Shown: positions 3,490-51,020 of the stretch, one piece after another
Numbering within the stretch: the stretch's first letter is position 1
Layout of the letters: each line of letters opens with the position of its first letter
NCBI GenBank assembly: GCA_013414795.1
Contig: CP058732.1
Coordinates: 1,161,744 to 1,225,743 of the forward strand
Reading direction: 5' to 3'
Length of the DNA stretch: 64,000 bases
Source: Candidatus Kapaibacterium sp.
GTDB taxonomy: Bacteria > Bacteroidota > Ignavibacteria > Kapaibacteriales > UBA2268
Notes under the pieces: model-generated
Databases searched by the model: none
What the model saw: only the letters and a program-made list of their open reading frames with translations
Told to the model about the DNA's origin: nothing
Translations under genes and position numbers: made by a program

Positions 3490-3517
3490 GGAGGCAAGAT
3501 TGCCTCCTTTTTATTTT
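3490..3517 (+). terminator. rho-independent terminator downstream of the oxidoreductase gene
   Basis: Perfect hairpin GGAGGCAAGATTGCCTCC followed by TTTTTATTTT. Confidence 0.6.
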
Positions 3518-3626
3518 CTTAATCTAATTAAATTTATGGCACAAATTTTTCTTTTTAATTTTTCTGATATTTGTAATTCAATTAGTTAATGTAAGTGGTG
3601 ATTATTCGCCAAAATTTAAGTTTGTT

Positions 3627-6600
3627 ATGAATGATGGTAGTGAACTAAAAAATTTAGCCGTTCTGGTTTCGGATGGTAATCCCGAGAACCTTTTCTATAA
3701 GTTTGTTAATTTAGTGAAACAAACTGCTTTTAAAGAAAAGCACTTAAATATTTTTATCTTCATCCGTGATATTTCAGAAAAAAGCCTTATCGAAAAATAT
3801 TTACCACTTTTGCCAGATAAATCTGTTGAACTTTTTGATGTTAAAGAATTCAAAAATGTTTTATCAAAATCAATTAACACCGATTCTATTGGACTTGTAA
3901 CAATTTATTTTGGACAAATTAGTTTACGCCCCGATGCCATTGATTTGTTGTCTTCGTTTTTACAAAACAATAATTTCATTGATGGGGCATTTGCAGATAC
4001 AATCTTATCAATTGATAATCAAAATTATTTCGAGGTTGTCGAATCCAATTTCGCTTCCAATTTCCCTTTTGAGTTTAAGCAAATACCGAAAAATTCGAAA
4101 TTGCTACCAGAACTTTTTGTATTGAAGAAAGAAATTTTTTATAAATTCTTTGAAGACTATGATACAATTTCAAGTTTCAATGCACTTACTTTTGCTAACT
4201 TTCTTTGGGAAAACGAGTTCCAAATCGAAAAGTTAGATTCGATTTTGAGTTCGAAGCCTATCGATTTGTCTGATGGTTTAACAAATGAAAAAATAGAAAC
4301 CCCCATAAAAGAAAAGTGGCTTTTAGAAAGGTTGTCACAAAAATTTGGAAGCAACTCGATACGAACACTTTTTTACAATGAATTAAACAACCTTCCCTAC
4401 CATTTTTCCAATCCCTTTAATGATTTGGTTTCTGTTGTTGTTTTTGATGAAAGTAGAACAAATTCTGTTGAAAAAGAAGTAACACTTAATTCTTTAAAAT
4501 TTCAAAGCCACAGAAATATAGAGATTATTGAGTGCATAGTTGATGTCGATTCTATTTCGAGTGCTTGCAATTTTGTGTCATTGATTGCAAACGGGAAATA
4601 TTTGTTCTTTTTAAATGCTGGTGATGAAGTTTTTTCCAACACATTTGTTGTTTTGATAGAATTATTGAAAGAGAGAGAACAGATTGGTTATGTTTACTTC
4701 GATTATATTCAAGAACAAGAACAAAGAGTAGTAAGAAATTTAGATTTCAGTTTTGAAAAACTTAAAAAATTTAATTTTATACCACATTATCTTTCTTTCA
4801 ATCGTTCCATATTCTTGAAAGGAAATCATTTTGACGAAAGTTTACCATTTGCATATTCTTTTTGGGATTTGCTGTTAACATTGGGTGAAAAAGGAATTTT
4901 TGGGACAAGGTATTCCGAACCATTGTTAAAAGTAAAAAGGATTGGGTCAAATTTTGATACAAAGAATGCCCTTCTGGACGCAAATTATAAGGCAAAGATT
5001 GTTTTAAACCATAAAGACTTGTTCACTCCGATGCAATTCAATTGGGCGAAATCGACATTGGAAGGCGAAAATATGTATGATAATAGTAAGATTCCCATTG
5101 GAATCATTCCAAGCAATTCGCTTTTGACTAAAGTTATTGTAAATAAATATAAGGAGGATAAAGTGGATACTCGAAAGAAAATACTTTTTGTAATGTACGG
5201 ATGGAACGAAACTGGTGGAGGCACAATTTTCCCCAAAAATGTTGCGATTGAATTGGCAAAGCGTGGTTGGGATGTCTCTGTTTTCTATGCCTCTTTAAAG
5301 TACGATCCTGCAATGCCGTTGTATTCAATGGAAAGGAGCCAGGAAGGGGGCGTGAAATTGTATGGCTTGTACAATCGTCCCGCAGCGTTCATCGACCCCG
5401 AAAACCCAAGTCGAGAAACATCCGACCCAATGGTTGAACAAAGGTTTAAAGAAGTTTTGGATGAGGTTGAACCCGAAATTATTCATATTCACAATCTTCA
5501 CGGATTAAGTTTAAGTTTGCCGAAAATTGCAAAGGAAAAATTCAAAGTACCAATTGTCTATACGCCACACAACTATTTTTTGATTGACCCCAAGTTGTAT
5601 ATGATAAATTCGGATTTGACTCTTTGGAAAGATACTGACTTTTTTGCTAATTCAGAACTTGTCAAGCAATTTCCCGAAAAGCGAAAGGATTACGAAAGGA
5701 GGCAAGAACTTGCTAAACAAACTCTTCAAGATTATTTTGATTTGGTATTGGCTGTTTCCCGCAGGCAGAAAGAAATTCTTAAAGAGTTTGCTGGCAATGA
5801 CAAAAATATCATTGTAGTTCACCAGGCGAACAAAATAGTGGACAAACTATGGGAAGACGATAGATTAAGATTTGAAGTTCAAAGAAAAGTACCAAAAAAA
5901 GTTCGCTTTGGTTACATTGGTGGAGTGTTTCCAACCAAAGGAGTTCATAACATCGCAAAAGCCGCTCAATATTTTCTTCTTAGTGATATTGAATTCCATA
6001 TCTTTGGTTTTGTGGGTCAGAAGTATGCAGAACAACTTAATTCAATCGATAGAAAGAAAATGCTCCAATATCATAATGAATATTCTTATGAAAATCTAAT
6101 TTCCATTGCATCTGAAATCGATGTTGGAATAGTGCCGTCGATTTATGAAGATCCTGCTCCTCTTGTTTTGTTGGAAATGAACGCTATGCGATTGCCTGTG
6201 CTTGGGTCGAAAATTGGTGGTATTCCCGACTTCGTTGTTGACGGAGTAAATGGTTTTCTTTTCGAATATGATGATATAGATTCTTTGGTTTCTGCAATTC
6301 AATTTTGTTCATTAAATCCCGATGTTGTTGACTCAATTCGACAACAATTGGAACCAGTGCATTACTTTGTCGATTATGTTTCCCACGTTGAAAAAATTTA
6401 TCTTGATTTGATAGAAAAAAAGGTTAGAAATCCTAAAGATTATGAATTGATTATAACAACAAAACTGCTAAGGAAAAGAAAGGTTAGTGATATAACTTTC
6501 ACTCGCAGGGTTGAGCTGCCAGAAGAGTTTCAAGCAAATTTTGCCAATCTTGGATATGAACTTTTAGATTTGAGAAAGTTAGAGGAAAACGATGATTATT

Positions 6601-8660
6601 CAGTATATCAAGCAGAATTTATGGTGCCAAAAAGTATAACACTCGAAAAGTTTTTTGAAGAAATTGGAACAGAGGCGAAAAGTGAAACTTTTGAAGAAGT
6701 TGTTTCAAAAGAGTTTAATCTTTTTCAAGAAAGCGAAAGCCCTCAATTGGATGAAAAAGTATTTGAATTATCGGATTTGGAGGAAATTTTGTCACCAAAG
6801 GAGGAAATCAAAGAGGAGGTTCATTTTAAAATGTCTCAAAGCAAACATAATGTTGGAATTAAGATTGACAAGTCGAATTTTAAACCAGAATTGAATGTCG
6901 TTTGGGAAGGTTCTCAATTTGTTTACCATTCTCTTGCATTAATTAATCGTGAACATTGTTCGAATTTAATTGATACGAATCTTGTTGAAGTTACAATAGT
7001 ACCATATGAAGCCGATCAATTTCAACCACTTGGAAACCCTAAATACGAGAAGTTAGCCAAAATGGACATTCGGATAAAAGAAGAACCACCAGAATGGATA
7101 AAGAAATTACCATATCTTTGGGTTCGCCATCAATGGCCACCTAAAGCGGAACCACCGAAAGGAGCAAAATGGGTGATAATGCAACCTTGGGAATTTACAA
7201 CGCTACCCAAAAAATTTGTTGATATATTTATGCAAGCAGACGAATTGTGGGTGCCTTCGAACTTTACTCGACAAGCGTTCATCAATAGTGGTATTCCATT
7301 CAATAAAGTTCAAGTTGTGCCAAATGGTGTCGATCCAAATCTCTTCCAGCCAAAAGGTGCAAAATATAAACTTCCAACAGATAAGAAATTGAAATTTTTG
7401 TATGTTGGTGGGACGACATATCGTAAAGGATTTGATATTCTTTTGCAGAGTTATGTTAGTGCTTTTAGTTCAAAAGACGATGTTGTTCTTGTGGTCAAGG
7501 ATATGGGAACTGAATCTTTCTACAAGGGTCAAACGGCAGAAGAGATGATCAATCAAATCAAAGAAGATCCAAATTCCCCAGAGATTATTTACATAAAACA
7601 TTATTTAACCGAAGAAGAAATGGCAAGTCTGTATCGTGCTTGCGATGTTTTCGTTTCTCCCTATCGTGGGGAAGGATTCTCATTGCCAACACTCGAGGCA
7701 ATGGCTTGTGGGCTCCCAGTGATTGTTACCGAGGGTGGTTCAACCGAGGATTTTGTTCTTGACAGCTTTGCGTGGAAAATACCTTCATACAAAATTTCGA
7801 TTGGTACAATGATTGACAAAGATCCTTTGGTTGGGGAAGCGTTCTTGTTGGAGCCAGATGGTGATTTTCTATCTGGTTTAATGAAATCAATATATATGAA
7901 TCCCGCAGATATTGTTGTTCGGGGTATTTTAGCATCTTCTTATGCCAGAACAATTTGGACTTGGAATCGTTCAACTTTGAAACTCCTTTCCAGAATTGAT
8001 GCATTATTTGGAAAGGTTTTGTCTAAAAAAGCCAAGGATATCTTGGTCGATAGAATAGATGCTCAAATACTTCTTGGTAAAGCGGAATCATATTTTGCAG
8101 ATGGTCAACTTGCCGATGCCTATAAAGTTTATCAACAAATTGAAAACAGAATTGAGGAATTAAGTCCAAAATATAAGTTGTTCTACTATTTGCGAATTGC
8201 AGTGATAAACATTTTAAATCAAGATTTTGAGAATGCTTTACTTTATTTGAAGAGAGTTGATAATATTGAGAAAAATCAAATCGATAGTTTATATTTAAAG
8301 TCGAAGATTCTTTATCTGGAAAATAAACTTGTCGAGGCTCTTGAAAGTTACACTGAATTAGTTTCTCGTTGGAATTCCGAAAGGTTCAATTCTGTTATTG
8401 GCAACTCCCTTGACCAAATTCTTGTCGAAATGGCAGATTTAATGCTGATAATGAAAGATGTAGATAGTGCTTTGCAACTGTACACGAATGCAATTAAACT
8501 TAATGAAAAGAAACTTGAAGCCTATATCGGTTCTGCAAAATGTTTCATAGAAGTGAAAGATTACGAAGAAGCCAAAAGAATGCTTGATTGGGCATTGAAA
8601 ATTGAACCAGAAAACGAAGAAGCAAAGTCGCTACTTGATCAAGTGTTGGTTCAAAGTTAG
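3627..8660 (+). CDS. giant multidomain glycosyltransferase: N-terminal GT2-like domain, two GT4 (group 1) domains, C-terminal TPR repeats
   Basis: 1677 aa. The GT2-like region has VVVFDESRT...LNAGDEV. Two separate GT4 C-terminal signatures occur: EDPAPLVLLEMNAMRLPVLGSKIGGIPDFVVDGVNGFLFE and GEGFSLPTLEAMACGLPVIVTEGGSTEDFV. An acidic low-complexity linker separates the halves. The last ~230 aa carry TPR-like repeats (AYKVYQQ..., ALQLYTNAIKLNEKKLEAYIGSAKCF..., EEAKRMLDWALKIEPENEEA). Confidence 0.85.
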   Translation: MNDGSELKNLAVLVSDGNPENLFYKFVNLVKQTAFKEKHLNIFIFIRDISEKSLIEKYLPLLPDKSVELFDVKEFKNVLSKSINTDSIGLVTIYFGQISLRPDAIDLLSSFLQNNNFIDGAFADTILSIDNQNYFEVVESNFASNFPFEFKQIPKNSKLLPELFVLKKEIFYKFFEDYDTISSFNALTFANFLWENEFQIEKLDSILSSKPIDLSDGLTNEKIETPIKEKWLLERLSQKFGSNSIRTLFYNELNNLPYHFSNPFNDLVSVVVFDESRTNSVEKEVTLNSLKFQSHRNIEIIECIVDVDSISSACNFVSLIANGKYLFFLNAGDEVFSNTFVVLIELLKEREQIGYVYFDYIQEQEQRVVRNLDFSFEKLKKFNFIPHYLSFNRSIFLKGNHFDESLPFAYSFWDLLLTLGEKGIFGTRYSEPLLKVKRIGSNFDTKNALLDANYKAKIVLNHKDLFTPMQFNWAKSTLEGENMYDNSKIPIGIIPSNSLLTKVIVNKYKEDKVDTRKKILFVMYGWNETGGGTIFPKNVAIELAKRGWDVSVFYASLKYDPAMPLYSMERSQEGGVKLYGLYNRPAAFIDPENPSRETSDPMVEQRFKEVLDEVEPEIIHIHNLHGLSLSLPKIAKEKFKVPIVYTPHNYFLIDPKLYMINSDLTLWKDTDFFANSELVKQFPEKRKDYERRQELAKQTLQDYFDLVLAVSRRQKEILKEFAGNDKNIIVVHQANKIVDKLWEDDRLRFEVQRKVPKKVRFGYIGGVFPTKGVHNIAKAAQYFLLSDIEFHIFGFVGQKYAEQLNSIDRKKMLQYHNEYSYENLISIASEIDVGIVPSIYEDPAPLVLLEMNAMRLPVLGSKIGGIPDFVVDGVNGFLFEYDDIDSLVSAIQFCSLNPDVVDSIRQQLEPVHYFVDYVSHVEKIYLDLIEKKVRNPKDYELIITTKLLRKRKVSDITFTRRVELPEEFQANFANLGYELLDLRKLEENDDYSVYQAEFMVPKSITLEKFFEEIGTEAKSETFEEVVSKEFNLFQESESPQLDEKVFELSDLEEILSPKEEIKEEVHFKMSQSKHNVGIKIDKSNFKPELNVVWEGSQFVYHSLALINREHCSNLIDTNLVEVTIVPYEADQFQPLGNPKYEKLAKMDIRIKEEPPEWIKKLPYLWVRHQWPPKAEPPKGAKWVIMQPWEFTTLPKKFVDIFMQADELWVPSNFTRQAFINSGIPFNKVQVVPNGVDPNLFQPKGAKYKLPTDKKLKFLYVGGTTYRKGFDILLQSYVSAFSSKDDVVLVVKDMGTESFYKGQTAEEMINQIKEDPNSPEIIYIKHYLTEEEMASLYRACDVFVSPYRGEGFSLPTLEAMACGLPVIVTEGGSTEDFVLDSFAWKIPSYKISIGTMIDKDPLVGEAFLLEPDGDFLSGLMKSIYMNPADIVVRGILASSYARTIWTWNRSTLKLLSRIDALFGKVLSKKAKDILVDRIDAQILLGKAESYFADGQLADAYKVYQQIENRIEELSPKYKLFYYLRIAVINILNQDFENALLYLKRVDNIEKNQIDSLYLKSKILYLENKLVEALESYTELVSRWNSERFNSVIGNSLDQILVEMADLMLIMKDVDSALQLYTNAIKLNEKKLEAYIGSAKCFIEVKDYEEAKRMLDWALKIEPENEEAKSLLDQVLVQS

Positions 8661-8684
8661 TGTGAAAAAGATTTGAGATTTTGC

Positions 8685-8774
8685 GGAAAGGGAGGGATTC
8701 GAACCCTCGGTACGGCTTGTGACCGTACACACGATTTCCAGTCGTGCCAGTTCAGCCACTCCTGCACCTTTCCG
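8685..8774 (-). tRNA. tRNA-Ser (anticodon GGA), long variable arm, CCA not encoded
   Basis: The reverse complement gives acceptor stem GGAAAGG/CCTTTCC, anticodon stem-loop CACGA-CUGGAAA-UCGUG (anticodon GGA), a long variable arm, and T-arm GAGGGTTCGAATCCCTC. Confidence 0.85.
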
Positions 8775-8857
8775 AAACCTCAAAATTACGAATTTTTATT
8801 GAATTTTGTAACTTTATGGTACAAATTTTGTTTATTTTCTTTTGATAGATGCTATAT

Positions 8858-9928
8858 ATGAATAGAAGGAATTTTTTTGAATTTGCAACAGCAAGTGCAA
8901 TTCTACTCGGTGTTCAGAGAGGAACTTTCCTTTTATCCAAAGAGAAAGAAAGTCAATCATTTTATTTTCCCCCACCATTGTTGAAGAAGGGCTCGAAAGT
9001 AGTTTTCACCGCTCCCGGTAGTCCAGCGAATTTTTGGGAGGTGCGAAATCTTGCAAGTTTTTTTGTACGTAGAGGTTGCACAGTAGAATATGGGGAAACA
9101 ATCACCAAACGCGATAAAAAGTTTAGGTACTTGTCTCGTGACGACCAAACGCGTGCCGAAGAATTGATGCGTTTTTTCACGGACCCAGCTGTAAATTGCA
9201 TTGTTGCGGCTCGCGGAGGCTATGGTTCAATTCGAATACTGGATTTACTTGATTACGATTTGATTAGGCAGAATCCTAAGGTCTTCATTGGTTTTAGCGA
9301 TATTACGAGCCTTTTGAATGCAGTCCACAAAAAGGCTGGTTTTTTTACTTTCCACGGTCCAACTGGGAATTTTTCGCTTGATAGTTTCACTGCTAAGGCG
9401 CTCGAATCGATGTTGTTCGAGTTGGAAAACAAAACCAACAACCAATTGCGATACAAATTTTCTAAATCTGATATACTTGTAAATGGGGAATCAAGTGGTC
9501 GTCTTGTTGGAGGAAATTTGTCGAATTTAGTTTCATTACTTGGAACTGAGTTTGAGTTCGACACAAACGATAGTATTTTGTTTTTGGAAGAAATTTCCGA
9601 ACCGCCATACAAAATAGACAGAATGTTGAAGCAATTGGAACTTGCAGGAAAATTTAAAAATTGCAATGGGGTATTGCTTGGATATTTTGGTAAACTCGAT
9701 TCTCGCCGAAACTTTTATCCAGACTATTCTTTGACTTTGAGCGAAATCTTTCAAATGTACTTCAAAAAATATGATTTTCCAGTAATTTTCAACATACCTT
9801 TTGGACACAGTTCAAAATTTCTTACTTTTCCAATAGGCGCAATTGCAAAAATTTCTTCCAAAAATCTGGAATTTTCTGTAAATTTGTATGAAGTTCTTTC
9901 TGATAATGAAAATGTTTATAAAAAATAG
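8858..9928 (+). CDS. LD-carboxypeptidase (peptidase S66, LdcA/MccF-like) with a probable twin-arginine signal peptide
   Basis: The N-terminus MNRRNFFEFATASAILLG resembles a Tat motif (RRxFF). The S66 fold is indicated by VVFTAPGSPAN and IVAARGGYGSIRILDLLDY. The track ORF starts two codons upstream at 8849. Confidence 0.75.
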   Translation: MNRRNFFEFATASAILLGVQRGTFLLSKEKESQSFYFPPPLLKKGSKVVFTAPGSPANFWEVRNLASFFVRRGCTVEYGETITKRDKKFRYLSRDDQTRAEELMRFFTDPAVNCIVAARGGYGSIRILDLLDYDLIRQNPKVFIGFSDITSLLNAVHKKAGFFTFHGPTGNFSLDSFTAKALESMLFELENKTNNQLRYKFSKSDILVNGESSGRLVGGNLSNLVSLLGTEFEFDTNDSILFLEEISEPPYKIDRMLKQLELAGKFKNCNGVLLGYFGKLDSRRNFYPDYSLTLSEIFQMYFKKYDFPVIFNIPFGHSSKFLTFPIGAIAKISSKNLEFSVNLYEVLSDNENVYKK

Positions 9929-9937
9929 AGGGTTCAA

Positions 9938-12900
9938 ATGAAAAGGTCATTATTAGTGCTTGCAATATTGTTGCTATTTAGGCAGATTTTAATTTCACAG
10001 GAGGCAACTTTTTCGATTTCAGAAGTGGATGCAAGCCGTTTTCCTTTGATACGCTGTACTTTCATTGCTCTTGACGCAACTGGAAAAAGTTACACGGATT
10101 TAAAACCCAGCGACTTCGATGTTTTTGAACGCGGGAAAAATATGAACCCCACTGTAAACGTTGAGTGCAAGGATACATTGGTAGAACCTGCGGTTAGCAT
10201 CATTTTAATTGTCGACCAAAGCGAATCGATGCGATGGTTGAACGAGGCTGGAGAACAACGATGGAGTTGGGTTTTGAGAGGTGTGGAAGCATTCGTCAAC
10301 ACAATTAATTTCAAAACTGGTACAAAAGTTGGATTGATTTCATTCGGGCGAGTTGCATATAAAAGATGTGACTTCACCGATAATAAGCAGGAAATTCTTG
10401 ATTCGTTGAACAATACTGTAATTGGTGGTGGCACTCTTTACGACCCACCATTTTTGGATAGAATTAACGGTGCAATTACAATGTTTCTTAATGGCTCTCC
10501 TGACCCGCAAAAGCGACGAATTATTGTGTTTTTGACTGATGGTGAACCAAACGACCCACCTAAAACCGACTCAATTGTCAAGGAATTGCAAAGAATTAAT
10601 GCACAGGTGTACGCAATCACTCTTGCTATGCCAATGCATAAATCATTGGAAGAAATTTCATCGAAAACTGGCGGCAAGGCTTACAAAGTCGAAACCAAAC
10701 AAGAACTTGAAGACATTTATCGATTTATTGCTCTCGACATTCAAAAGAAACAACTTTGTCAACTTACTTGGGTTACAGATTATGGATGTGACAAACTTGA
10801 TTTAGTTAGACCAATTAAGATTACCTTCAAACGGCAGGCAGTAACAATTGAAAGAGATTATGTTGCACCAGATTACAGCATTGCAAAATTGCCAATCGAC
10901 GGAGCGATATTTGATTTTCTCGACCCAGCACCCAATACCTCCAATGATTTGGACATTACAATAACTGCACCAGTTGCTGATTACACTATCAATGACATAA
11001 AAATTATACCGTCCACTTATTACCAAGTGATAAATTGGGACGTTGGTGGTTCTGGAGGTGCCCCGCCTTTTGTTATTCCAGCAGGTGAATCCAGAACTAT
11101 TCGAGTGCGTTTCACTCAAGGAGCAGTGCGTTCATATCGAGAAGCAACTCTTTATATTGATGCCAAACCTTGCCCTGCACAAGTAAAACTAATCGGTGGA
11201 ATTTCCCAAGTTCGAATTATATCTCCAAATGGTGGCGAAATTTATTCAATATGTGATACAATTAATATTGTTTGGAGTGGTGTTGAAAGCGACAAGCCAA
11301 TCAATTTGTTCTACAGTACCGACGGCGGAAATAGTTGGCGACCTATTGCTTCTAATGTTAAGGGACTTTCCTATAAGTGGATACCTCCTGTTGGAGGAAA
11401 TAATCTTCGCATTCGTGCAACAGTTGCCCCAGTTTCAAACTATATTTGGGCAAAAGCAATTGGCGGAACAGAAGATGACTTTGGTAGAAGTATAGCAGTA
11501 ACTGAAGATAATTCCTACTTATACATTACTGGTTCTTTCTCTGGAACAATTGAATTTGAGAACAATAAGAAATTTACCAGTGCTGGCGGGTTGGATATCT
11601 TTGTTGCTAAGTATGATAGAGACGGAAACTTGATTTGGGTCCAAACTGCTGGAGGTTACGGAACGGATACTGCTGCTGGAATTTGTGTCGACCGTGCTGG
11701 TAATGCTTATGTTGTTGGTACCTGTCAACAGACAGCGACTTTTGGTTATATTTCGCCTAATATTCCTATTAAAGATGCTCCTTATTGTTTCATTGCTAAA
11801 TACCCCGCAAGTGGTTCAACACCCATTGTAACACTCATTGGTCCCGACCAGACTTATTCTAACTTTAAAGCCTGGGGACAGAAGATTAAATACAAAGTAA
11901 ATCAAGCACCAAATCCCGACGAGATTGTCATTTTAGGTGAATATGTTAATCAGATTCAAACAGTTTTATATTCACTCCCCAAAGTAACTGTCCCAACTAC
12001 TTTTACTGGTGTGTTGTATCCAGATATGACTATCAAATACACGCAAAAAGGTGGGACCGACGATGGAACTTTTTCAAAGAGTGTGGCATATGATGGAGTT
12101 GGCGACCGATATGAGGTAGGGACTTTCACTGGCACATTAGTAAGCGGAAACATTACAATAACCAGTAAAGGCAAGAATGATGTCTTTATCCGTAGATATG
12201 GTGGAAGCCCAGGTAGTCAAGACATAAGCGATACGGTATTTTCTATTCAAAACCCAGTATGGGTACTTGCAAGCAATAGTTATGATTTTGGAGACTGTAC
12301 AGTAGGCGACGTCAAGCCAGTTGTATTAGATGCGTACATTTGTAATCGAGGGAATGTTCCAATCGTCATAGCCAACACTGCTTTTATTGGCTCCAATCCA
12401 GCAGATTTTAGAATTGGTGCAACTCTAATAGGTAAACGATTAATGCCCGGTGATTGCATTCCAGTTGAATTAGCATTTGTTCCCAAGGATGTTGGCGCCA
12501 GAAATGCTCAACTTGTAATTACACCCGATTGTGGTTCAGAACTGGTTTTGAATTTGAGTGGATTTGGTGTTTGTACTGGCGAAGCACTTTCCAAAGTTAA
12601 TCTTGGACCCTCGAATTTAAGTGTGAAAGTAACCAAAACTATACAATGCATTTTTAAAAATACAAATCCCGCCTCAGTTCCAGTGAAATTTGTAATTTAT
12701 GGACCTAATGCTTCCGACTTTTCTATACCAATAAGCAGTTTAATTGTAAAACCCGGGGAATGTGTAGACCTTGATGTTTCATTCATTCCTTCTGGTGCTG
12801 GACTTCGTGTAGCATATCTCAAGTTTGAGTTGCCCCCGGGCTGTATCAATCCAGAAACTGAACTTAACGGTATTGGTGTTGATGCCGATATTGTGATTGA

Positions 12901-14539
12901 GCCGATTGATTGGAATGGTCGTAGGTTAAAGACTCAAAACGATACCGATTTAGTAATAATTAACCGAAGTTCTATTGCACAAAAACTTTTGGATATCCAA
13001 TTCCAAGATAACATCCCCAATTTTGAGTTTGTTAATAATCCACCAATTCCTTTGCCATACACTGTTCAAAGTGGTGATAGTATAAAAATTCCCATTCGTT
13101 TTACCCCCGAAGAAGAAGTTCAATACTCTAACACTCTCATCTTAAAGTTCGAAGGGCTTTTAAGCGACCTTTATGGTAATGTTCGTGGCGAGGGTATTCT
13201 TCCGAGAATTGAGTTAAAATGGACTTGCCTCGATGCAGTTAAACCCGGTGAACAGGGAATGGCTGAACTTGAAGTTTCAAATCCAAGTACAACTGCCGAT
13301 TTAGTAATTTATAAGATGGACTTCAAGTACAAAACTGGAGATTTTAATTGGGTTAATGGTGTTCCAACGAACGAGGTAATTCCAAAATCTTCCAGCAAAG
13401 TTTACGAAGTTTACTTTACTCCTCAAACTCCAGGTACTCGGGCCGATTTGATTGAAATTACGCACGACGCTGCCCCTGGTCCAGAAAAATATCCTCGGGT
13501 CGACACTACATTCGATGCTGAATGCGATGGACTTGGTTTGACTGCTGTGAAAACAATTGATTTTGGAAATAGCATTATTTGCGACGATAATGCTTACGAC
13601 TTGAAAGTTATCAATGATAGTTGGATAACACCTATTACTATCACAGGTTATGAAATAACTGGTTCGGGAAGCGAGGCATTCAGATTATTGGAGAATATGC
13701 CAATTGTAGTTCCGCCTTCTAATTTCGTTACCTTGAAATTGGTTTTTGATCCACAAGAAGCAAAAGACTATAATGCCGTCTTGACATTTAAAACCTCGAT
13801 AAATAGTGATATTGTAATTAATTTGACTGGAAAAGGTGTTTTACTCGACTTTTATTCTGATAATCCCGAATGGAAATTGGAACCGACGTTTTCCCGCAAT
13901 TTAAATGTAAAGGGAAGGATACCAAAATTATACAATGCTAACATTAATTCATTAGATTTAAATATTTACTATAATCCGAAGATGATTAGGATTGATACGA
14001 TACGTCCTTCGCCCTCGCTTCAAAATTGGGTTTGGGAACCTCCGACACTGGTCGAACGTGGCAAAGTGAATTTGAAAGGTAGCGGAAGCCTTGCAACTGG
14101 ATTTGACCTTGAATTGTTTACCATTGACTTTACTGTATTTCTTGGGGATGTTAAGGAGTCGACATTCGATATAGAAATGAAGAACAATGGCTGCCTTGCG
14201 CCGCTCGACATAGTTTCTAAAATCATAATTGCAAACGTTTGCTTTATCGATGGAAGATTGATAACACTTTCCGATACTCCTTATTTCATAACTTTGCCTG
14301 AACCCAATCCAGTAGTTGACAAAATCAACTTCAAGTTTGGCGTGGCTTTTGATGAACCAGTCAACGTTTCATTAATAAACATTTATGGACAAACCATTAA
14401 GACATTTGTCGACGAGAATTTAAAGGCCGGTATCTACGAAGTGAATAGCGATGTTTCGAACATTTCAAATGGCGTATATTATTTGAAACTCATTTCTGGT
14501 AGTTACCAAAAGATTTTGCCAATTATTATTGCAAAATAA
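9938..14539 (+). CDS. 1533-aa secreted multidomain protein: signal peptide, vWA domain, beta-propeller (SBBP-like) repeats, multiple Ig-like/ASH (choice-of-anchor-D-like) domains, T9SS C-terminal sorting domain
   Basis: The signal peptide is MKRSLLVLAILLLF. The vWA domain carries a MIDAS motif IVDQSESM. SBBP-like repeats include FGRSIAVTEDNSYLYITGSF and GGLDIFVAKYDRDGNLIWVQTAGG. Ig-like modules of the DFGxxxxG...I.N.G type are repeated. The C-terminal ~80 aa end ...GVYYLKLISGSYQKILPIIIAK, as in Por-secretion CTDs. Confidence 0.8.
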   Translation: MKRSLLVLAILLLFRQILISQEATFSISEVDASRFPLIRCTFIALDATGKSYTDLKPSDFDVFERGKNMNPTVNVECKDTLVEPAVSIILIVDQSESMRWLNEAGEQRWSWVLRGVEAFVNTINFKTGTKVGLISFGRVAYKRCDFTDNKQEILDSLNNTVIGGGTLYDPPFLDRINGAITMFLNGSPDPQKRRIIVFLTDGEPNDPPKTDSIVKELQRINAQVYAITLAMPMHKSLEEISSKTGGKAYKVETKQELEDIYRFIALDIQKKQLCQLTWVTDYGCDKLDLVRPIKITFKRQAVTIERDYVAPDYSIAKLPIDGAIFDFLDPAPNTSNDLDITITAPVADYTINDIKIIPSTYYQVINWDVGGSGGAPPFVIPAGESRTIRVRFTQGAVRSYREATLYIDAKPCPAQVKLIGGISQVRIISPNGGEIYSICDTINIVWSGVESDKPINLFYSTDGGNSWRPIASNVKGLSYKWIPPVGGNNLRIRATVAPVSNYIWAKAIGGTEDDFGRSIAVTEDNSYLYITGSFSGTIEFENNKKFTSAGGLDIFVAKYDRDGNLIWVQTAGGYGTDTAAGICVDRAGNAYVVGTCQQTATFGYISPNIPIKDAPYCFIAKYPASGSTPIVTLIGPDQTYSNFKAWGQKIKYKVNQAPNPDEIVILGEYVNQIQTVLYSLPKVTVPTTFTGVLYPDMTIKYTQKGGTDDGTFSKSVAYDGVGDRYEVGTFTGTLVSGNITITSKGKNDVFIRRYGGSPGSQDISDTVFSIQNPVWVLASNSYDFGDCTVGDVKPVVLDAYICNRGNVPIVIANTAFIGSNPADFRIGATLIGKRLMPGDCIPVELAFVPKDVGARNAQLVITPDCGSELVLNLSGFGVCTGEALSKVNLGPSNLSVKVTKTIQCIFKNTNPASVPVKFVIYGPNASDFSIPISSLIVKPGECVDLDVSFIPSGAGLRVAYLKFELPPGCINPETELNGIGVDADIVIEPIDWNGRRLKTQNDTDLVIINRSSIAQKLLDIQFQDNIPNFEFVNNPPIPLPYTVQSGDSIKIPIRFTPEEEVQYSNTLILKFEGLLSDLYGNVRGEGILPRIELKWTCLDAVKPGEQGMAELEVSNPSTTADLVIYKMDFKYKTGDFNWVNGVPTNEVIPKSSSKVYEVYFTPQTPGTRADLIEITHDAAPGPEKYPRVDTTFDAECDGLGLTAVKTIDFGNSIICDDNAYDLKVINDSWITPITITGYEITGSGSEAFRLLENMPIVVPPSNFVTLKLVFDPQEAKDYNAVLTFKTSINSDIVINLTGKGVLLDFYSDNPEWKLEPTFSRNLNVKGRIPKLYNANINSLDLNIYYNPKMIRIDTIRPSPSLQNWVWEPPTLVERGKVNLKGSGSLATGFDLELFTIDFTVFLGDVKESTFDIEMKNNGCLAPLDIVSKIIIANVCFIDGRLITLSDTPYFITLPEPNPVVDKINFKFGVAFDEPVNVSLINIYGQTIKTFVDENLKAGIYEVNSDVSNISNGVYYLKLISGSYQKILPIIIAK

Positions 14540-18035: not shown

Positions 18036-19846
18036 TTATTTGATAATTAATATGGATTGAGAATTTAAGCCTTGCAAAGACTCAATTACTAAATGATAAA
18101 CACCCGACGGTAGTTCTTTGCAATTAATTTTTATTGTTTCGGCAGAGTAGGGATCAATCGAGATTCTTTGAACAATTTCTCCAAGCCTATTGTAAATATT
18201 AATTACCCTCGGTAAAGAATTTGAAATTTGGCTAATCTTAATTTCAATTGCTTGTTCGATTTCATTGTAGAAAGCGAGGTTATTACTTGAAAATTGCTTT
18301 TCTTCGACTGAAACAAAGCCTTCAACTTCGCCTTGAAGTTCAATATAGAAACTACTATTGTTTTTAGCATTTGTTGTTACTTTGATTCGCCCATAATAAA
18401 CTCGCTCTTCTTGGGTTGCAGCGGAAAATCTCACTTTGACTTTGAATGAATCGTTTGGCTCGATATAAATAGGAGTTTGTAAAACTTGGGCAAAGTCGAA
18501 TCTTTGATGGTCTTGGTAAGTAGTATCAATTTCGAACTCTGATATTTCCAGTGTTTTATCACCCACATTTTTCAACACAAGTTCAATGATTTTACTTGTC
18601 GGTTTTTTCACTTTTCCAAAATCAATTTTGTTCTCGGGGAAGTTAGTTTCGAGAATTGGTCCTTTGGCTTCAATACCGCCACCATAACCCCAAACTTCAA
18701 GATAGTAGTATTCGTTGTTAAGTGCATTTGTTTTGATAGAGATTGATCCTTTGTAGGCGATTTTTTCTTTGGGAGTAAATTTAACTGTAAAAGTATACTT
18801 TTCGCCTCGCTTCAATGTTACTGGTTTGGTGATTTTGCCTGAAATTATTTCAAAAACATCGTCTGGATTTTCCCAAAAATCAATTTCTTCGATTACCAAG
18901 TTTAATTTTCCTGTGCTTGTTATCGTAACTTGTATTGTATCCGATTTACCTGGTTGGATTTCCCCGAAATCAACAATATTCGGGTCGATATCATATGCTG
19001 CACCGTCGGGGGCAATATTTCCTTTGAGCCAAGTCATAGCACGGGCGAGTTGGTAGCCGCGGGGAATATCCCCGGCAAATGCCTCGAAACCAATAGACCA
19101 GAAACATAGCCGTGCTGTTCCCCATTCTGTCCGTATTCCCACAATTGTGTCGTTGGGATAGTCATTATTTTTTCTAATAAAATGATCAACTGGGTGAAAC
19201 TTTGTTGGATCTTTTGATTTGAATACATCAAAAGCAAGATAGATTGCAAGGGGCCACCAAACTTCTTGACCAGTATTAAAGCCCATATTACACCATTTAA
19301 TGATAGATTGTCCTACTGGATCCCCGAACGCACCACGCACGTTGAAACTCCAGTACTGAATTTCGTTACCGGATTGTCGGCTAACGAAAACTCGCGTAAG
19401 ATACTCGATGCCAAGTGTGTCGGAAAGGAATTTTTGAACTTCGGGGTTTAAGTCGCCTCCTTGTGGATTAAATGCATAATAAAGCACATTCCTGCCTATT
19501 ATCAAACAGTTTTTGCCCGCAGCAATCATTTGTCTGATAGCGTTGAGAACGCTTGCATTTCCGACTTTGGTGTTGAGTTTGTTGTCTCCTAAAAGAAAGA
19601 TTGCTACGTCGAAGTCTGTGAGTTTGTATTTCTGCAAAGTTGCATCGTTAAATGGTTCCCGAACGACGTAAGGAGCAATGTCGGGCATATATGTCGGGTC
19701 GGTTAAGTAAATCCAATAGGCACTGTCTACGAAATTTTTTTGCTCGAGGTTGTCGAAAAGTATATACTTGGGCTGTTCAGCGGAAAGGTTTCGAAAAGTG
19801 ATTGCAAGTATTGACACCAATAATAGTACTAATCCTTTCTTCATAT
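18036..19846 (-). CDS. secreted T9SS cargo protein: signal peptide, uncharacterised ~280-aa N-terminal domain (shared with the upstream neighbour), two Ig-like/ASH domains, T9SS C-terminal sorting domain
   Basis: The likely start is MKKGLVLLLVSILAITF at 19844-19846, preceded by GGAGG. The track ORF extends to 19904. Ig-like modules include DFGEIQPGKSDTIQVTITSTG and DFGKVKKPTSKIIELVLKNVG. The CTD ends ...LPSGVYHLVIESLQGLNSQSILIIK. Confidence 0.7.
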
Positions 19847-19861
19847 TAACCTCCTCGTTGT

Positions 19862-19906
19862 TTTTAAAACAAAAAAGGCTGCCACCCAAGGATTTGGATG
19901 GCAACC
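19862..19906 (-). terminator. rho-independent terminator after the upstream T9SS cargo gene (minus-strand orientation)
   Basis: On the minus strand GGUUGCCAUCCAAAUCCUUGGGUGGCAGCC can form a hairpin (with G-U pairs) followed by UUUUUUGUUUU. It sits in the 20-80 nt gap between the two tandem cargo genes. Confidence 0.5.
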
Positions 19907-19924: not shown

Positions 19925-22729
19925 TTATTTAACAATAACAATTGGAATGTATTGTACTTCATCTCCTAACTGAATTCTCAAATTGTAATGACCACTGGGC
20001 AAGTTGGAAACGGAGAATTTCTCGATTGAATTTCCTTGGGCAAAACTTCCAACTTTCAAATTCTCGATGAGTGTGCCTTTCAGATCAAATATTTGAATAG
20101 TTGCGTTGCTGGTACCAGTTTCGGGAGAATTGACTACAAGCGTTAATTCATCGTTCACTGGTAACGGTGTGACTCGTATTTGAGTACCATTGGAGAACTT
20201 GGTTTTTGCGACAGAGCCAGCAACTTCTCCTTCGCCGGTAAGAGGAATATTCAGCGTAGGTTCGTTGTTAGCATTCGAAGTAATTCGAAGAATTGCATTG
20301 TAAGTCTTTGCTTCGGTTGGCGTAAAGAGAATACTGAGTGTAAGAGTTTCCCCAGGACCAAGTTCAACAGGCAAAGTTGGCATATTCATAATTGAAAAGA
20401 CACCGGGATTATTGACGATTTGTATGTTGGTTATTTGAAGGTCGGCAAGTCCAGTATTTGTTATGTCAACGTCTGCAACTTTTGAATTTTGTGTCGCACC
20501 TTTGCCAAAATTCACTTCGGTTTTGTTTGCTGAGATAAGGGGAACATTGCCAGCAACTCCAATTCCATCGAGCGAGATTAGTTCGTCTGGTGAGTTCTTT
20601 GCGTTGGATTTGATGACAATGGAAGAAGTATACGAAACTGCTTCATCCTTCGGGGTGAAAGATACAGTGACAGTGTATTTCTGATTTGGTTGAATAGTTA
20701 AGGGCAATGTTGGTGGGTTAACAATGTTAAAGACTTCTTCGGGATCGAAATCTCTATCAACATACAATTCGGTTATAATTAGTGGCTCGTCACCAGTGTT
20801 CGAAATATCGAATGTTTTTGTTGCGGTCGTACCAACAATTACTTCTTCGAAATCAATTGCTGTAGCGCTCAAAGTGATTTGTGGACCAATTTTCGTTGTT
20901 GGTTTGTTGAGAAGCCATTCGATAATTTTTGAAATGAACCCATTTCTGCGGGTTGGGTCTGCAATTGCTTCAAAGCCTGATGTCAAGTAGACTATTCTTG
21001 CGTCTCCATTTGTTACGCGCACGCCACCGTATGCGGTAGGATTGTTGTCGTAGTAAATAATAGGTTTCGTGTTGTTATTATTTGTTATTCCAAGAATGTC
21101 GGTATAGACAATATAGTAAGGATGGGAACTTTGGTTATATTGGTTCATAGTTAAACTGATACCGTTGCCAATGGGGTCACCACTTACTCCATTTGCAGGA
21201 TATGAATTTACGGCGGTAATTTGCCCACTACTGTTTACAGTAACTCGAAGTACCGGATTTTGGGCTTGGTTAATAAATAACTTGTTGGAATAAAAGTCTC
21301 TCGCGGTTTGTGAACCTTGGGTACCTTGGGAAAAAGCAAGGTCAACTTCAGAGGTTAGAAGAATGCTTTTACCAGAGGAAATCATCGAATTAAGCGCAGT
21401 AAACAAAGGAGTACTTTCAGCAAAATACCCACCAAGAACACCTCGTGTCCAAAAACTAAAACCAAAGACAGCAAGATCGAAATTTGGCACAGGATAATTG
21501 TTTAAAATATCCATTGCGAACGGAAGAAGTGCTGCATCATTGGCGTATTTTGTCATATTAAGGATTCCCTGGTAGGCGAAACTGGCGCTTGGGGAATTCG
21601 AAAGTACGTAAAATGCATATTTTGTGTCTTCTGTTAAAGCATAGAAATATCCACTTGACACTTCGTAGGGCGTTTGCACATTTGGAGTGAAATCAACACC
21701 AATAACTGCAAATTCTGCTTTTGTCCCGCTTTTGAGGGTTACTTTTACTTGTTGTGTTTGGTTGGGTTGCAATATTAATTGTTGTGTATTTAATGTTGCT
21801 TGCCAGCCAGATGGAATATAACTTGTAGATGTGTTAATTGCTGCATTGACACGCAGTAATTCATTACTTGGGTTTGTTACATTGAATGTGTATTCCAATT
21901 GTCCTTTTCGCGGTATGGTTAAAAATGGATTGTCTGCGGTTAAATTAACTTTTGCCACTTTAAGATTCTGTGCTGCTTGGAGAACTTCTTGCGTTTGGTC
22001 ATCTTGAATGAATGCAACAACGTAAATTTGCGAGGCTTTCCAAGAAGATTTAATTGAGTAATTAAAGGTATATGTTTGGTTGGAGCCAGCGTTTAAATTT
22101 AAAGTTGTTCCGTTTGCGTCGGGTAACATTGTTCGAGCAACCCAGAAAAATTCTTTTTCTCCGTTTGTACCGGGAGGAGTAGGATATGAAATGTAATATT
22201 CAACGACTGCAACTCGCAGTTTTTTCCCCACAAGAGATTGTGAAGTGTTAATGGTTACGTTTACAGTGCATTGAGAACCACTTCGCGTTTCTGCAACTTG
22301 AAGTGTAATTGGGGATGTTGTCCCACGATATTTGTCCACTTCGTTTTTTATTGCAACAGTGTCGCCTGCGGCACCTTCATACCAGTTGCCTGTTGGGGGC
22401 AGAGCCATTTTTCCGTTAACACGTACCTCGGGGACCCCTTGTTGGTCAATGCCATAATATTTTATTCTTGCAGTGTTCATAGCAGTATTTTCAAGGTACA
22501 TTGGGTCATTGCCTCCGGGCCACCAAGCGTGGTAAATCAGGGGTATAACATCAGAAAAGTTGTTACGGATAAAGGCTTGGAAAGAAGGATTTTGGGCTGC
22601 GCAAGGTCCGCAACTAGTATTTGTTGCTTCTTCAATCAACACTTTGCGTGGGGAATCTGCGAATGCGTCGAATTTTGGAACTAAAATGATAAATGAGAGC
22701 AAAGAAAAGAAGAACAAGAACTTTTTCAT
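19925..22729 (-). CDS. secreted T9SS cargo protein: signal peptide, thioredoxin-like/Omp28-like N-terminal domain with a CGPC motif, central domain paralogous to the downstream neighbour, Ig-like domains, T9SS C-terminal sorting domain
   Basis: 934 aa. Signal peptide MKKFLFFFSLLSFIIL. The N-terminal motif is EEATNTSCGPCA. The central region (FDLAVFGF...SGKSILLTSEVDLAF...SGDPIGNG...GDARIVYLTSGFEAIAD) aligns with 18036-19846 (FDVAIFLL...AGKNCLIIGRNVLYYAF...FGDPVGQS...GTARLCFWSIGFEAFAG). The CTD ends ...LPSGHYNLRIQLGDEVQYIPIVIVK. Confidence 0.75.
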   Translation of the reverse strand: MKKFLFFFSLLSFIILVPKFDAFADSPRKVLIEEATNTSCGPCAAQNPSFQAFIRNNFSDVIPLIYHAWWPGGNDPMYLENTAMNTARIKYYGIDQQGVPEVRVNGKMALPPTGNWYEGAAGDTVAIKNEVDKYRGTTSPITLQVAETRSGSQCTVNVTINTSQSLVGKKLRVAVVEYYISYPTPPGTNGEKEFFWVARTMLPDANGTTLNLNAGSNQTYTFNYSIKSSWKASQIYVVAFIQDDQTQEVLQAAQNLKVAKVNLTADNPFLTIPRKGQLEYTFNVTNPSNELLRVNAAINTSTSYIPSGWQATLNTQQLILQPNQTQQVKVTLKSGTKAEFAVIGVDFTPNVQTPYEVSSGYFYALTEDTKYAFYVLSNSPSASFAYQGILNMTKYANDAALLPFAMDILNNYPVPNFDLAVFGFSFWTRGVLGGYFAESTPLFTALNSMISSGKSILLTSEVDLAFSQGTQGSQTARDFYSNKLFINQAQNPVLRVTVNSSGQITAVNSYPANGVSGDPIGNGISLTMNQYNQSSHPYYIVYTDILGITNNNNTKPIIYYDNNPTAYGGVRVTNGDARIVYLTSGFEAIADPTRRNGFISKIIEWLLNKPTTKIGPQITLSATAIDFEEVIVGTTATKTFDISNTGDEPLIITELYVDRDFDPEEVFNIVNPPTLPLTIQPNQKYTVTVSFTPKDEAVSYTSSIVIKSNAKNSPDELISLDGIGVAGNVPLISANKTEVNFGKGATQNSKVADVDITNTGLADLQITNIQIVNNPGVFSIMNMPTLPVELGPGETLTLSILFTPTEAKTYNAILRITSNANNEPTLNIPLTGEGEVAGSVAKTKFSNGTQIRVTPLPVNDELTLVVNSPETGTSNATIQIFDLKGTLIENLKVGSFAQGNSIEKFSVSNLPSGHYNLRIQLGDEVQYIPIVIVK

Positions 22730-49733: not shown

Positions 49734-49770
49734 ATTTTTTAATTTTGAAATTTTGCAAAATTTTTTTCCG

Positions 49771-51012: not shown

Positions 51013-51020
51013 GGATAGCA

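Follow-up and report, generated by a model that had tools for sequence, protein, structure and literature searches.

How many working active sites are held in one polypeptide that strings several glycosyltransferase (GT) domains together, and on what kind of acceptor does such a protein act? These questions are raised by a long open reading frame (ORF) in a 64,000-nucleotide stretch of a Candidatus Kapaibacterium sp. genome (contig CP058732.1, positions 1,161,744 to 1,225,743), which is the whole stretch that was analysed and is called the window below. An earlier description made from the letters alone (the sequence-only reading) proposed a rare fusion of three catalytic modules, one GT2-like and two GT4, followed by a tail of tetratricopeptide repeats (TPR). 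Our analysis found four GT folds instead of three: two N-terminal GT-A domains with decayed motifs (N1 and N2) and two GT4 modules whose sites look intact (GT-B1 and GT-B2). Overall we favour, with moderate confidence, the explanation that the protein is a soluble cytoplasmic modular Leloir glycosyltransferase and one variant of a family that shares a GT4 + TPR cassette. Two active sites, not three, are likely; only the two GT4 sites are expected to work, because the GT2-derived domains lack the DxD and ED motifs and a methyltransferase module seems to be reduced to a stub.

Glycosyltransferase modules of the long reading frame

An open frame of 1677 codons in DNA of 36.6% G+C, the value for the whole window, is not a chance event. 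The chance that this frame is an assembly or annotation artefact merging separate genes is practically negligible. Seventeen full-length orthologues (1570–1710 amino acids (aa), 51–99% identity) were retrieved when 5.8 billion proteins were searched; they have the same domain order, can be aligned end to end and contain no internal stops. They originate from NCBI, JGI and Logan assemblies, and the named ones are metagenome-assembled genomes (MAGs) of Kapaibacteriota or Ignavibacteria. One of them (P0001) is a 99% identical copy on two other contigs, and the full architecture is also carried by nine species-level GTDB genomes (L009–L016, L055). Because full-length orthologues come from independent assemblies, a fusion artefact or frameshift is ruled out, and the single 1677-aa polypeptide of the sequence-only reading is real. 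Conservation along the protein is uneven. Mean identity among orthologues is 33% in N1, the least conserved folded part, 46% in N2, 32% in an acidic linker and 82% in GT-B2, the most conserved part.

Membership of the GT4 family was judged by matches above the Pfam gathering thresholds, with PF00534 or PF13692 for the C-terminal half of a module and PF13439 for its N-terminal half. In the whole protein PF00534 scored 140.8 bits over two stretches and PF13439 scored 77.3 bits. Within GT-B1, Glyco_transf_4 covers aa 530–732 and Glycos_transf_1 covers aa 750–899; GT-B2 scanned alone gave 72.5 bits for Glycos_transf_1 (PF00534) and 28.9 bits for PF13439, against a cut-off of 28.5. The AlphaFold2 (AF2) model of GT-B2 has a predicted local distance difference test score (pLDDT) above 90 and its top Foldseek matches are all GT4 structures, and for GT-B1 a GT-B fold is predicted from the Pfam matches on both halves together with PDB sequence matches. 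All catalytic-domain matches of the protein were to GT4, and none to the OGT-type domain GT41.

Catalytic residues are kept in both modules. In GT-B1 the G530-G-G loop, H622, K771-G772 and the Glu pair E841-x8-E850 are invariant in the 17 orthologues, and in GT-B2 the same holds for R1266-K1267-G1268 and a canonical E1349-x7-E1357. Two complete GT-B domains, each with an E-x7-E motif, had been described; both are indeed GT4 and every one of these glutamates is invariant, but the pair in GT-B1 is E-x8-E, a one-residue insertion relative to GlgM (6tvp) in the HMMER alignment. More than one GT domain thus retains its catalytic motifs on detailed alignment. GT-B1 and GT-B2 share just 26% identity over 130 aa, which rules out a recent tandem duplication and places them in different GT4 lineages, presumably with different specificities. 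GT-B2 also has a conserved Trp/Pro/Lys-rich segment (aa 1161–1188) and, within its C-terminal Rossmann domain, a highly conserved beta-hairpin insertion, AWKIPSYKISIGTMIDKDPLVGEAFLLEPD. Canonical GT4 structures have no such hairpin, and it may serve to bind the acceptor or to contact the TPR.

The Foldseek neighbours of GT-B2 are GlgM, PBCV B736L, ManT, sucrose-phosphate synthase, HepE, PimB′ and WaaG, all at 11–17% identity. Every NCBIfam match fell far under its cut-off (for example, 105.7 bits for glgA_Coryne against 302.4), and the protein belongs to no curated family there. A role as a defence or 'conflict' GT4 (PF20706) was also considered and rejected: that model gave 36.9 bits to GT-B2, as one of several overlapping GT4 models. 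GT4 domains of PF20706 are found with STAND NTPase, MoxR-vWA and other defence modules (PMC8195603); PADLOC gave no match for the GT protein, and no defence-type neighbours occur in five orthologous loci.

The AF2 model of aa 1–515, made with the orthologue alignment (pLDDT 85.8, predicted template modelling score 0.87), shows two consecutive GT-A-type alpha/beta domains. The tandem GT-A enzymes K4CP (E = 5e-17), PmHS2, LARGE1 and LH3 are its top PDB matches in Foldseek, and the single-domain GT2 structures SpsA, WrtF and 6p61 rank next. The family profile matches 6p61 (E = 2e-4) and SpsA (E = 1e-3) through N1, and the model, Foldseek and the profile together assign a GT-A fold to N1 and N2. 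Pfam gave no match in aa 1–262, where N1 lies, and for N2 (PF00535, aa 267–384) it gave 19.6 bits when the whole protein was scanned and 16.8 bits when the domain was scanned by itself, both under the GT2 cut-off of 23.3. The N-terminal GT2-like domain of the earlier description is therefore GT2-like in its GT-A fold, but it consists of two tandem domains, neither of which reaches that cut-off.

Decay of the two domains was judged by aligning the family profile to the intact tandem GT2 modules of a distant relative (P0151) and of two members of the cassette family (L033 and L077). At the DxD site, N1 reads YFGQ ('FGQ', aa 95–97) against NTDD in relatives, and N2 reads LNAGD ('NAGD', aa 330–333) against LDADD or LDGDD, so a DxD motif is found in neither. 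The ED region of N2 is YSFWDLL ('YSFWD', aa 410–414) against YEDWEFW, which holds the presumed catalytic base, in intact relatives; in N1 no acidic residue is aligned at the ED-type base positions. In addition, N2 is without about 21 aa of the segment that bears the nucleotide-binding DDGS-type loop. The N1 motif position varies among orthologues (ER, GR, EK, DF, SD, VD, PN, DD), which indicates that it is no longer constrained. From these motifs we infer that N1 and N2 are decayed GT2 modules kept as folded domains.

The GT4 + TPR cassette and its linker

GT-B2 is directly followed by a TPR domain, as the sequence-only reading had proposed for the C-terminal tail. About 220 aa are involved; TPR_19 scored 48.0 bits (cut-off 25) and TPR_12 32.4 bits (cut-off 30.1), and TPR_2 and TPR_14 were also above their cut-offs. 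In the AF2 model this region is all-helical, with about 11 helices packed as repeats at pLDDT above 90, and consensus TPR proteins are among its Foldseek matches. GT-B2 and the TPR domain together form a strongly conserved cassette, the last 591 aa of the protein. At E < 1e-20, a search with the cassette found more than 1474 proteins. Identity among the best 120 relatives is 43–77%, mostly 45–55%, and nearly all match over 97–100% of the 591 aa; an alignment of 74 sequences has about 60 invariant columns. In a scan with one genome per species, the cassette was found in at least 432 species-level genomes, and the best 80 of these are nearly all Kapabacteria, Ignavibacteria, Chlorobiota (including Chloroherpeton thalassium) and unclassified Bacteroidota MAGs. 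Literature searches returned no paper on this GT4–TPR family and no characterised homologue.

Many of the records, which come from binchicken/SRP co-assemblies, are labelled 'uncultured Hyphomicrobiales bacterium' (L012, L016, L021–L024 and others). Their genes are 50–70% identical to, and syntenic with, those of Kapabacteria or Ignavibacteria, and the organism labels on such MAG records look like placeholders or errors.

Proteins with the cassette are of three kinds: the cassette alone (about 591–600 aa), the cassette with an N-terminal S-adenosylmethionine (SAM) methyltransferase (about 800–960 aa, the commonest), and larger forms. In 80 loci, the length of the cassette ORF ranges from 591 to 2876 aa. 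Pfam layouts were read in five large ORFs and include GT2 x3–GT4–TPR (1535 aa), GT2 x2–methyltransferase–GT4–TPR (2039 aa), methyltransferase–GT9–GT2–GT4–(methyltransferase)–GT4–TPR (2443 aa, L047) and GT2 x3 with further GT-like domains–GT4–TPR (2830 aa). Modules orthologous to GT-B1 (41–49% identity over about 420 aa) lie directly upstream of the cassette in about 20 larger relatives, usually at a spacing of 240–320 aa that holds a methyltransferase. One relative of 2049 aa (L033) has the same N2–GT-B1–short spacer–GT-B2–TPR core as the window protein, with N2 intact. Giant relatives of 2750–2880 aa (L017, L021, L025, L027, L066) have at least five GT-like modules and end in the GT4–TPR cassette; the N-termini of these giants may be misplaced, as each ORF was started at the first Met of its open frame and some have their start no more than a few hundred bases from a locus edge.

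The 1677-aa arrangement itself is narrow, a single 50%-identity cluster matched over its full length, and multi-GT fusions as such are common as judged by sequence searches. A profile of aa 1–515 found 7012 proteins at E <= 1e-3 among 1.84 billion cluster representatives, mostly multi-GT proteins of 500–5000 aa. These relatives and the many architectures of the cassette proteins speak against the rarity that had been claimed for tri-catalytic fusions, and so do the characterised prototypes with two or three GTs, WbdA and WbbB (PMC11231755).

An acidic low-complexity linker had been noted between the modules, and it is present. The acid-rich region spans aa 951–1070, with 11–14 Asp + Glu per 50 residues, and aa 1014–1079 within it are predicted to be disordered (pLDDT < 50) in an AF2 model of aa 941–1677 (74 sequences, pLDDT 85.4). 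All members of the cassette family have an acidic, variable and disordered stretch ahead of the cassette. Inside the linker of the window protein lies a short linear motif, KVFELSDLEEIL, with the consensus (F/Y)-x-Φ-x-x-L-x-(E/Q/S)-Φ, and its version FELSDLEEI is 45 residues before GT-B2. F1046 is near-invariant and L1051 is invariant in orthologues. Relatives have versions such as FSIDMLEEI, YDLDMLQEV, YNIAMLEEL and FDIDLLSEI, 22–66 residues ahead of GT-B2. With a strict regular expression the motif is found in 43 of 99 cassette relatives, where shuffled linkers would give 0.3 by chance, and in 11 of the 17 orthologues. It could bind the TPR as a ligand, dock a partner or form a helix that binds the membrane.

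Just before the disordered part, a small helix and beta-hairpin element (pLDDT 62–80; about aa 966–999 in the AF2 model) aligns in MAFFT with the strands that end the SAM-methyltransferase domain in methyltransferase–GT4–TPR relatives. This register is no more than suggestive of a vestige of a lost methyltransferase module. Pairwise BLAST of aa 966–1010 with the methyltransferase was not significant, and no methyltransferase Pfam match was found in the GT protein.

Mode of action, acceptor and gene neighbourhood

The upstream part of the family varies from nothing, through a SAM methyltransferase, to up to about 2200 aa of GT2, GT4, GT9 and methyltransferase modules. In the explanation that we favour, the upstream part of the window lineage would be GT2-GT2-GT4-(methyltransferase stub), with the stub suggestive only. 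Each GT4 site would draw on a nucleotide sugar to add a single type of sugar in alpha linkage (retaining), yielding either a short glycan of defined structure or a repeat of the disaccharide type. This lineage appears to have silenced three of its five ancestral catalytic modules (two GT2 and one methyltransferase) with their folds kept, and the decayed GT-A domains probably persist as scaffold or binding domains. It may further be, as a weaker inference, that the invariant cassette performs a family-wide common step, with the TPR holding an acceptor or partner that is itself conserved, and variable upstream modules would elaborate or diversify the product. The protein is predicted to be soluble and cytoplasmic because it has neither a signal peptide nor a transmembrane segment; in a Kyte–Doolittle scan of the 1677 aa the top 19-residue mean was 1.45. 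Every domain is net acidic.

The acceptor is more difficult to assign. By analogy, we tentatively propose a TPR-recruited macromolecule, most plausibly a protein, at somewhat below an even chance, because TPRs are typical of protein glycosyltransferases and atypical of polymerases of lipid-linked glycans. A bolder extension of this proposal is that the cassette family is a single-polypeptide cytoplasmic assembly line for protein glycosylation across Kapabacteria, Ignavibacteria and Chlorobiota. In it, the TPR would pick the protein, GT4 would prime, upstream modules would extend or cap, GtfB-like decayed GT-A pseudo-enzymes would hold the substrate, and the linker motif would gate access as an intramolecular TPR ligand. 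We consider this extension quite unlikely.

Several points weigh against the explanation favoured here or parts of it. N2 retains D333, D359, D403-E404 and many invariant residues, and metal-independent GT-A enzymes exist; loss of DxD and ED motifs would hence be no proof that a GT-A domain is inactive. The structural neighbours of GT-B2 (GlgM, ManT, sucrose-phosphate synthase, PimB′, WaaG) act on sugars, lipids and small molecules, not on proteins. TPRs can also act in oligomerisation or in building a complex instead of binding an acceptor. AF2 leaves the linker motif undocked on the TPR, at pLDDT 31–41. As to the methyltransferase remnant, the profile score is good for some orthologues (21.6 bits for P0010) and just 3.4 bits for the window protein.

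Gene context was examined in the window, in orthologous loci and in 80 cassette loci, where all ORFs were clustered. The GT gene is an orphan in every locus examined. No polysaccharide or glycan gene cluster was found in the window, and wzm/wzt, primer or adapter GT and nucleotide-sugar genes were found neither in the window nor in five orthologous loci and are not recurrent in the 80 cassette loci. No neighbour family occurs in more than 11 of these 80. Two cassette relatives (P0119, P0035) are located among unrelated housekeeping genes. Reading function from the neighbourhood was also tried and rejected: the recurrent neighbours (MnmE, MnmG, RmlD-like, S66, MsbA-like ABC and RsmI-like) track lineage synteny and are often on the opposite strand.

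These data bear on three other acceptors. That the protein, like WbdA, WbbB or WsaE, polymerises a lipid-linked glycan of the cell surface (O-antigen, capsule or S-layer glycan) is possible but doubtful; we give this that weight because the modular format and the variability at species level fit the WbdA model (PMC11231755). The GT4 modules would then extend an undecaprenyl-pyrophosphate primer at the inner membrane face, the methyltransferase of relatives would cap the chain, and the TPR would dock to export or assembly machinery. The set of modules does differ strongly from one related species to another, a pattern also seen in surface glycans; GT-B2 is similar to mannosyl- and glucosyltransferases that take part in making glycolipids and polysaccharides (ManT, PimB′, WaaG, HepE), and an MsbA/PglK-type ABC exporter lies 0.9–2 kb downstream in 7 of the 80 cassette loci. 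However, no wzm/wzt, priming phosphoglycosyltransferase or nucleotide-sugar genes adjoin the gene in the loci examined, the GT protein has no coiled-coil ruler, its N-terminal Rossmann domains carry a net acidic charge and show no obvious basic face for binding a membrane, and TPRs are not usual in such polymerases. An acceptor that is itself soluble, namely a cytoplasmic oligo- or polysaccharide or glycoside (a storage glycan, a compatible solute or a methylated polysaccharide like mycobacterial MMP/MGLP), seems unlikely to us. In relatives, the methyltransferase module would methylate the newly added sugar, and it is true that methyltransferase + GT4 is the commonest cassette architecture, that the protein is soluble and acidic and its gene an orphan, and that the nearest neighbours of GT-B1 and GT-B2 (GlgM, the methylmannose-polysaccharide ManT, sucrose-phosphate synthase, BshA and MshA) are enzymes of the cytoplasm that use soluble acceptors. 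Yet these structural matches are generic GT4 similarity at 11–17% identity, and NCBIfam scores are far under every equivalog cut-off. Moreover, a simple metabolic GT would not be expected to have a conserved TPR and a disordered linker bearing a docking-type motif, and it is unusual for the number of modules to vary so extremely in a metabolic pathway.

The third acceptor is the large type IX secretion system (T9SS) adhesin that the sequence-only reading located about 1.3 kb downstream and named as a candidate substrate. This 1533-aa VWA/Ig protein does start 1278 nucleotides (nt) after the GT gene, but that the GT is its cytoplasmic glycosyltransferase, like HMW1C or GtfA/GtfB, is very improbable. 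The TPR tail would suit such a role; adhesins are glycosylated in the cytoplasm in serine-rich repeat protein systems (PMC6973325, PMC5207161), and the block of GT, tRNA-Ser (minus strand), S66, VWA/T9SS and KdsA genes is kept in orthologues at 69, 62 and 54% identity. In orthologues at 51–52% identity, however, the linkage is gone: a phosphoribosyltransferase gene lies upstream and a MoxR ATPase or TonB-dependent receptor gene downstream. VWA-type neighbours occur in 4 of the 80 cassette loci, and across its many species the cassette has unrelated neighbours. The adhesin carries a Sec signal peptide, it lacks a region rich in Ser/Thr that could act as acceptor (Ser + Thr reach at most 27.5% per 40 aa), and the two genes are in separate transcription units with a convergent tRNA gene between them. 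An identical 16-nt sequence, TTATGGYACAAATTTT, occurs exactly twice in the 64 kb, upstream of the GT gene and of the S66–VWA unit, with similar T-rich sequence after both copies, and might be a promoter or operator element. It was rejected as a shared promoter and not taken as evidence of co-regulation, because at least two matches arose in 8 of 100 shuffles and the sequence is absent from eight related loci, those of the orthologues included. Thus the neighbouring adhesin is unlikely to be the substrate, and a TPR-recruited acceptor of another kind is still our proposal.

Transcription of the GT gene alone is most likely, as had been supposed, because a terminator lies upstream and a convergent, conserved tRNA-Ser gene downstream. 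The hairpin GGAGGCAAGATTGCCTCC has seven stem pairs, five of them G-C, and is followed by the T tract TTTTTATTTT; it is predicted to end the upstream zinc alcohol dehydrogenase gene and to shield the GT gene from upstream transcription. The tRNA gene reported downstream is present as tRNA-Ser(GGA), with the correction that it is on the minus strand and convergent with the GT gene; it has the equivalent place in orthologous loci L001, L003 and L005. Coordinates are listed in Table 1.

Table 1. Features of the GT gene, its product and its surroundings (window coordinates)
Feature	Position	Strand	Residues or location	Basis
Intrinsic-terminator-like hairpin and T tract	3490..3517	+	5′ of GT gene, 3′ of zinc alcohol dehydrogenase gene; hairpin 3490–3507	
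TTATGGYACAAATTTT, first copy	3534..3549	+	78 nt 5′ of GT start	exact match
Whole GT ORF, ATG start	3627..8660	+	1677 aa + stop codon	ORF listing, translation
N1, first GT-A-fold domain	3648..4376	+	about aa 8–250	AF2, Foldseek, family profile, motif alignment
N2, second GT-A-fold domain	4419..5066	+	about aa 265–480	sub-threshold PF00535, AF2, motif alignment
GT-B1, complete GT4 module	5172..6446	+	aa 516–940	Pfam, GlgM alignment, orthologue alignment
Helix + beta-hairpin element	6522..6656	+	about aa 966–1010	pLDDT, MAFFT register
Acidic linker	6657..6884	+	about aa 1011–1086	composition, AF2, variable length and sequence among orthologues
Short linear motif KVFELSDLEEIL	6756..6791	+	aa 1044–1055, inside linker	orthologue alignment, regular expression
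GT-B2, complete GT4 module	6885..7991	+	aa 1087–1455	Pfam, AF2, Foldseek
Beta-hairpin insertion AWKIPSYKISIGTMIDKDPLVGEAFLLEPD	7770..7859		aa 1382–1411	
C-terminal TPR domain	7992..8657	+	aa 1456–1677	Pfam, AF2
tRNA-Ser(GGA)	8683..8773	-	divides GT from S66–VWA–KdsA genes	
TTATGGYACAAATTTT, second copy	8814..8829	+	about 20–30 nt 5′ of S66 start	exact match
S66 LD-carboxypeptidase gene	8849..9928	+	downstream of tRNA-Ser	
VWA/Ig-like protein with T9SS C-terminal sorting domain	9938..14539	+	1533 aa	Pfam
KdsA-like gene		+	downstream of VWA/T9SS gene	Pfam

Among the neighbours, S66 is the only one common to several architecture classes. It is found in 9 of the 80 cassette loci and starts 4 nt after a methyltransferase-type cassette gene of 811–838 aa in two of them (L041, L078). 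The S66 protein of the window starts with MNRRNFFEF, a twin-arginine-like signal, and because of this N-terminus it is probably periplasmic, not the usual cytoplasmic LdcA.

Other genes of the window were also of interest in their own right. Three large secreted proteins with ASH/Cep192/HYDIN-like Ig domains lie within 13 kb, the adhesin gene being one (9938–14539, plus strand; 18036–19904 and 19925–22729, minus strand); two have T9SS C-terminal sorting domains, one has VWA and another Omp28. At 25954–30273 (plus strand) a 1439-aa protein holds two BadF/BcrA/HgdC-type ATPase stretches and DUF2229 ('CoA enzyme activase'), and no obvious dehydratase partner was seen among the window ORFs scanned. 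A 258-aa fusion of a response-regulator receiver with a glycine-cleavage H-protein (lipoyl/biotinyl-type), an unusual two-component output domain, is encoded at 46758–47534 (plus strand), directly after a PAS histidine kinase (44926–46755); genes for a radical-SAM protein and a TPR protein come next. At 49600–53174 (plus strand) a heparinase II/III-like gene comes immediately after one for a NamZ exo-beta-N-acetylmuramidase, and the two may be a pair for cell-wall or glycan degradation.

Significance and relation to known systems

Multi-module glycosyltransferases are a known kind of enzyme, and our finding changes no concept. The points of note are the size and conservation of the cassette family, the decayed modules and the linker motif. 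A large family in a poorly studied lineage is without a curated model or a characterised member, and such strong conservation of a gene that stands alone suggests some basic role in the cell. The series of proteins from 591 to about 2900 aa, with gain, loss and decay of modules, should be useful for studying how pseudo-enzymes originate in glycan assembly proteins. The conserved short motif, which lies in a disordered linker near the TPR, offers a handle for mutation or binding studies. For annotation, the lesson is that counts of GT-like domains are predicted to overstate the number of active sites in the window protein.

Multi-module polymerases for ABC-transporter-dependent O-polysaccharides, such as WbdA of Escherichia coli O9a/O8 and Klebsiella pneumoniae O3/O5 and WbbB of K. 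pneumoniae O12, are the closest in format (PMC11231755). Like the window protein, they are single polypeptides, soluble or peripheral, that combine more than one GT module; they have two or three, one per linkage type. The modules of WbdA are GT4-type mannosyltransferases, and methylation partners are known in WbdD and in the methyltransferase-containing ORF6 of serotype O7 (PMC11231755). However, WbdA and WbbB are encoded in rfb clusters with wzm/wzt and sugar-nucleotide genes, unlike the orphan gene of the window; they use coiled-coil rulers in place of a C-terminal TPR, they have no decayed GT-A domains, and their sequence similarity to the window protein is just generic GT4 similarity.

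Tandem GT-A domains in one chain are shared with K4CP (2z86), PmHS2 (8vh7/8vh8), LARGE1 and LH3 (6fxm), with Foldseek E-values from 5e-17 to 1e-9. Identity is only 10–13%, and the relative orientation of the domains differs, with a root mean square deviation of about 20 Å over both. Both GT-A sites of K4CP, PmHS2 and LARGE1 are active and have DxD motifs, whereas both of those in the window protein are without DxD. In LH3 a catalytic GT-A domain is accompanied by a GT-like accessory domain without catalytic activity, which sets a precedent for such a pairing.

Eukaryotic and bacterial OGT (GT41) and the flagellin glycosyltransferases GmaR of Listeria and FlmG of Caulobacter are, like the window protein, cytoplasmic and join a TPR array to a Leloir glycosyltransferase; their TPRs select protein substrates. 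The window protein differs in that its catalytic domain is GT4, not GT41 or GT2, its TPR is C-terminal, and its gene context points to no protein substrate. A bacterial OGT has been described (PMC4683255). In the GtfA/GtfB systems for serine-rich repeat adhesins of Streptococcus and Lactobacillus, a GT4 enzyme acts with a non-catalytic GT-fold partner, and further GTs extend the glycan before export (PMC6973325, PMC5207161). A GT4 alongside non-catalytic GT folds is likewise predicted for the window protein, and the match of N2 to GalT1 (5hea) is faint (E = 0.051). The GtfA/GtfB proteins, however, are separate and encoded beside a Ser-rich adhesin and an accessory Sec system, whereas the window modules are fused, no accessory Sec is present, and the neighbouring adhesin is not Ser/Thr-rich.

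True homologues are the methyltransferase–GT4–TPR and GT4–TPR proteins (for example, P0049 with 845 aa, P0119 with 598 aa and L047), which have the same cassette, linker and motif; in several of them an orthologous GT-B1 is present too, as are N1 and N2 in intact form. Most of these relatives have an intact methyltransferase, unlike the window protein, where the alignment suggests at most a stub. The window protein would work in the manner of WbdA, WbbB, WsaE-type proteins and K4CP but departs from them in the context and family features that define them, and judged by its sequence it is a true member only of the unnamed GT4–TPR cassette family.

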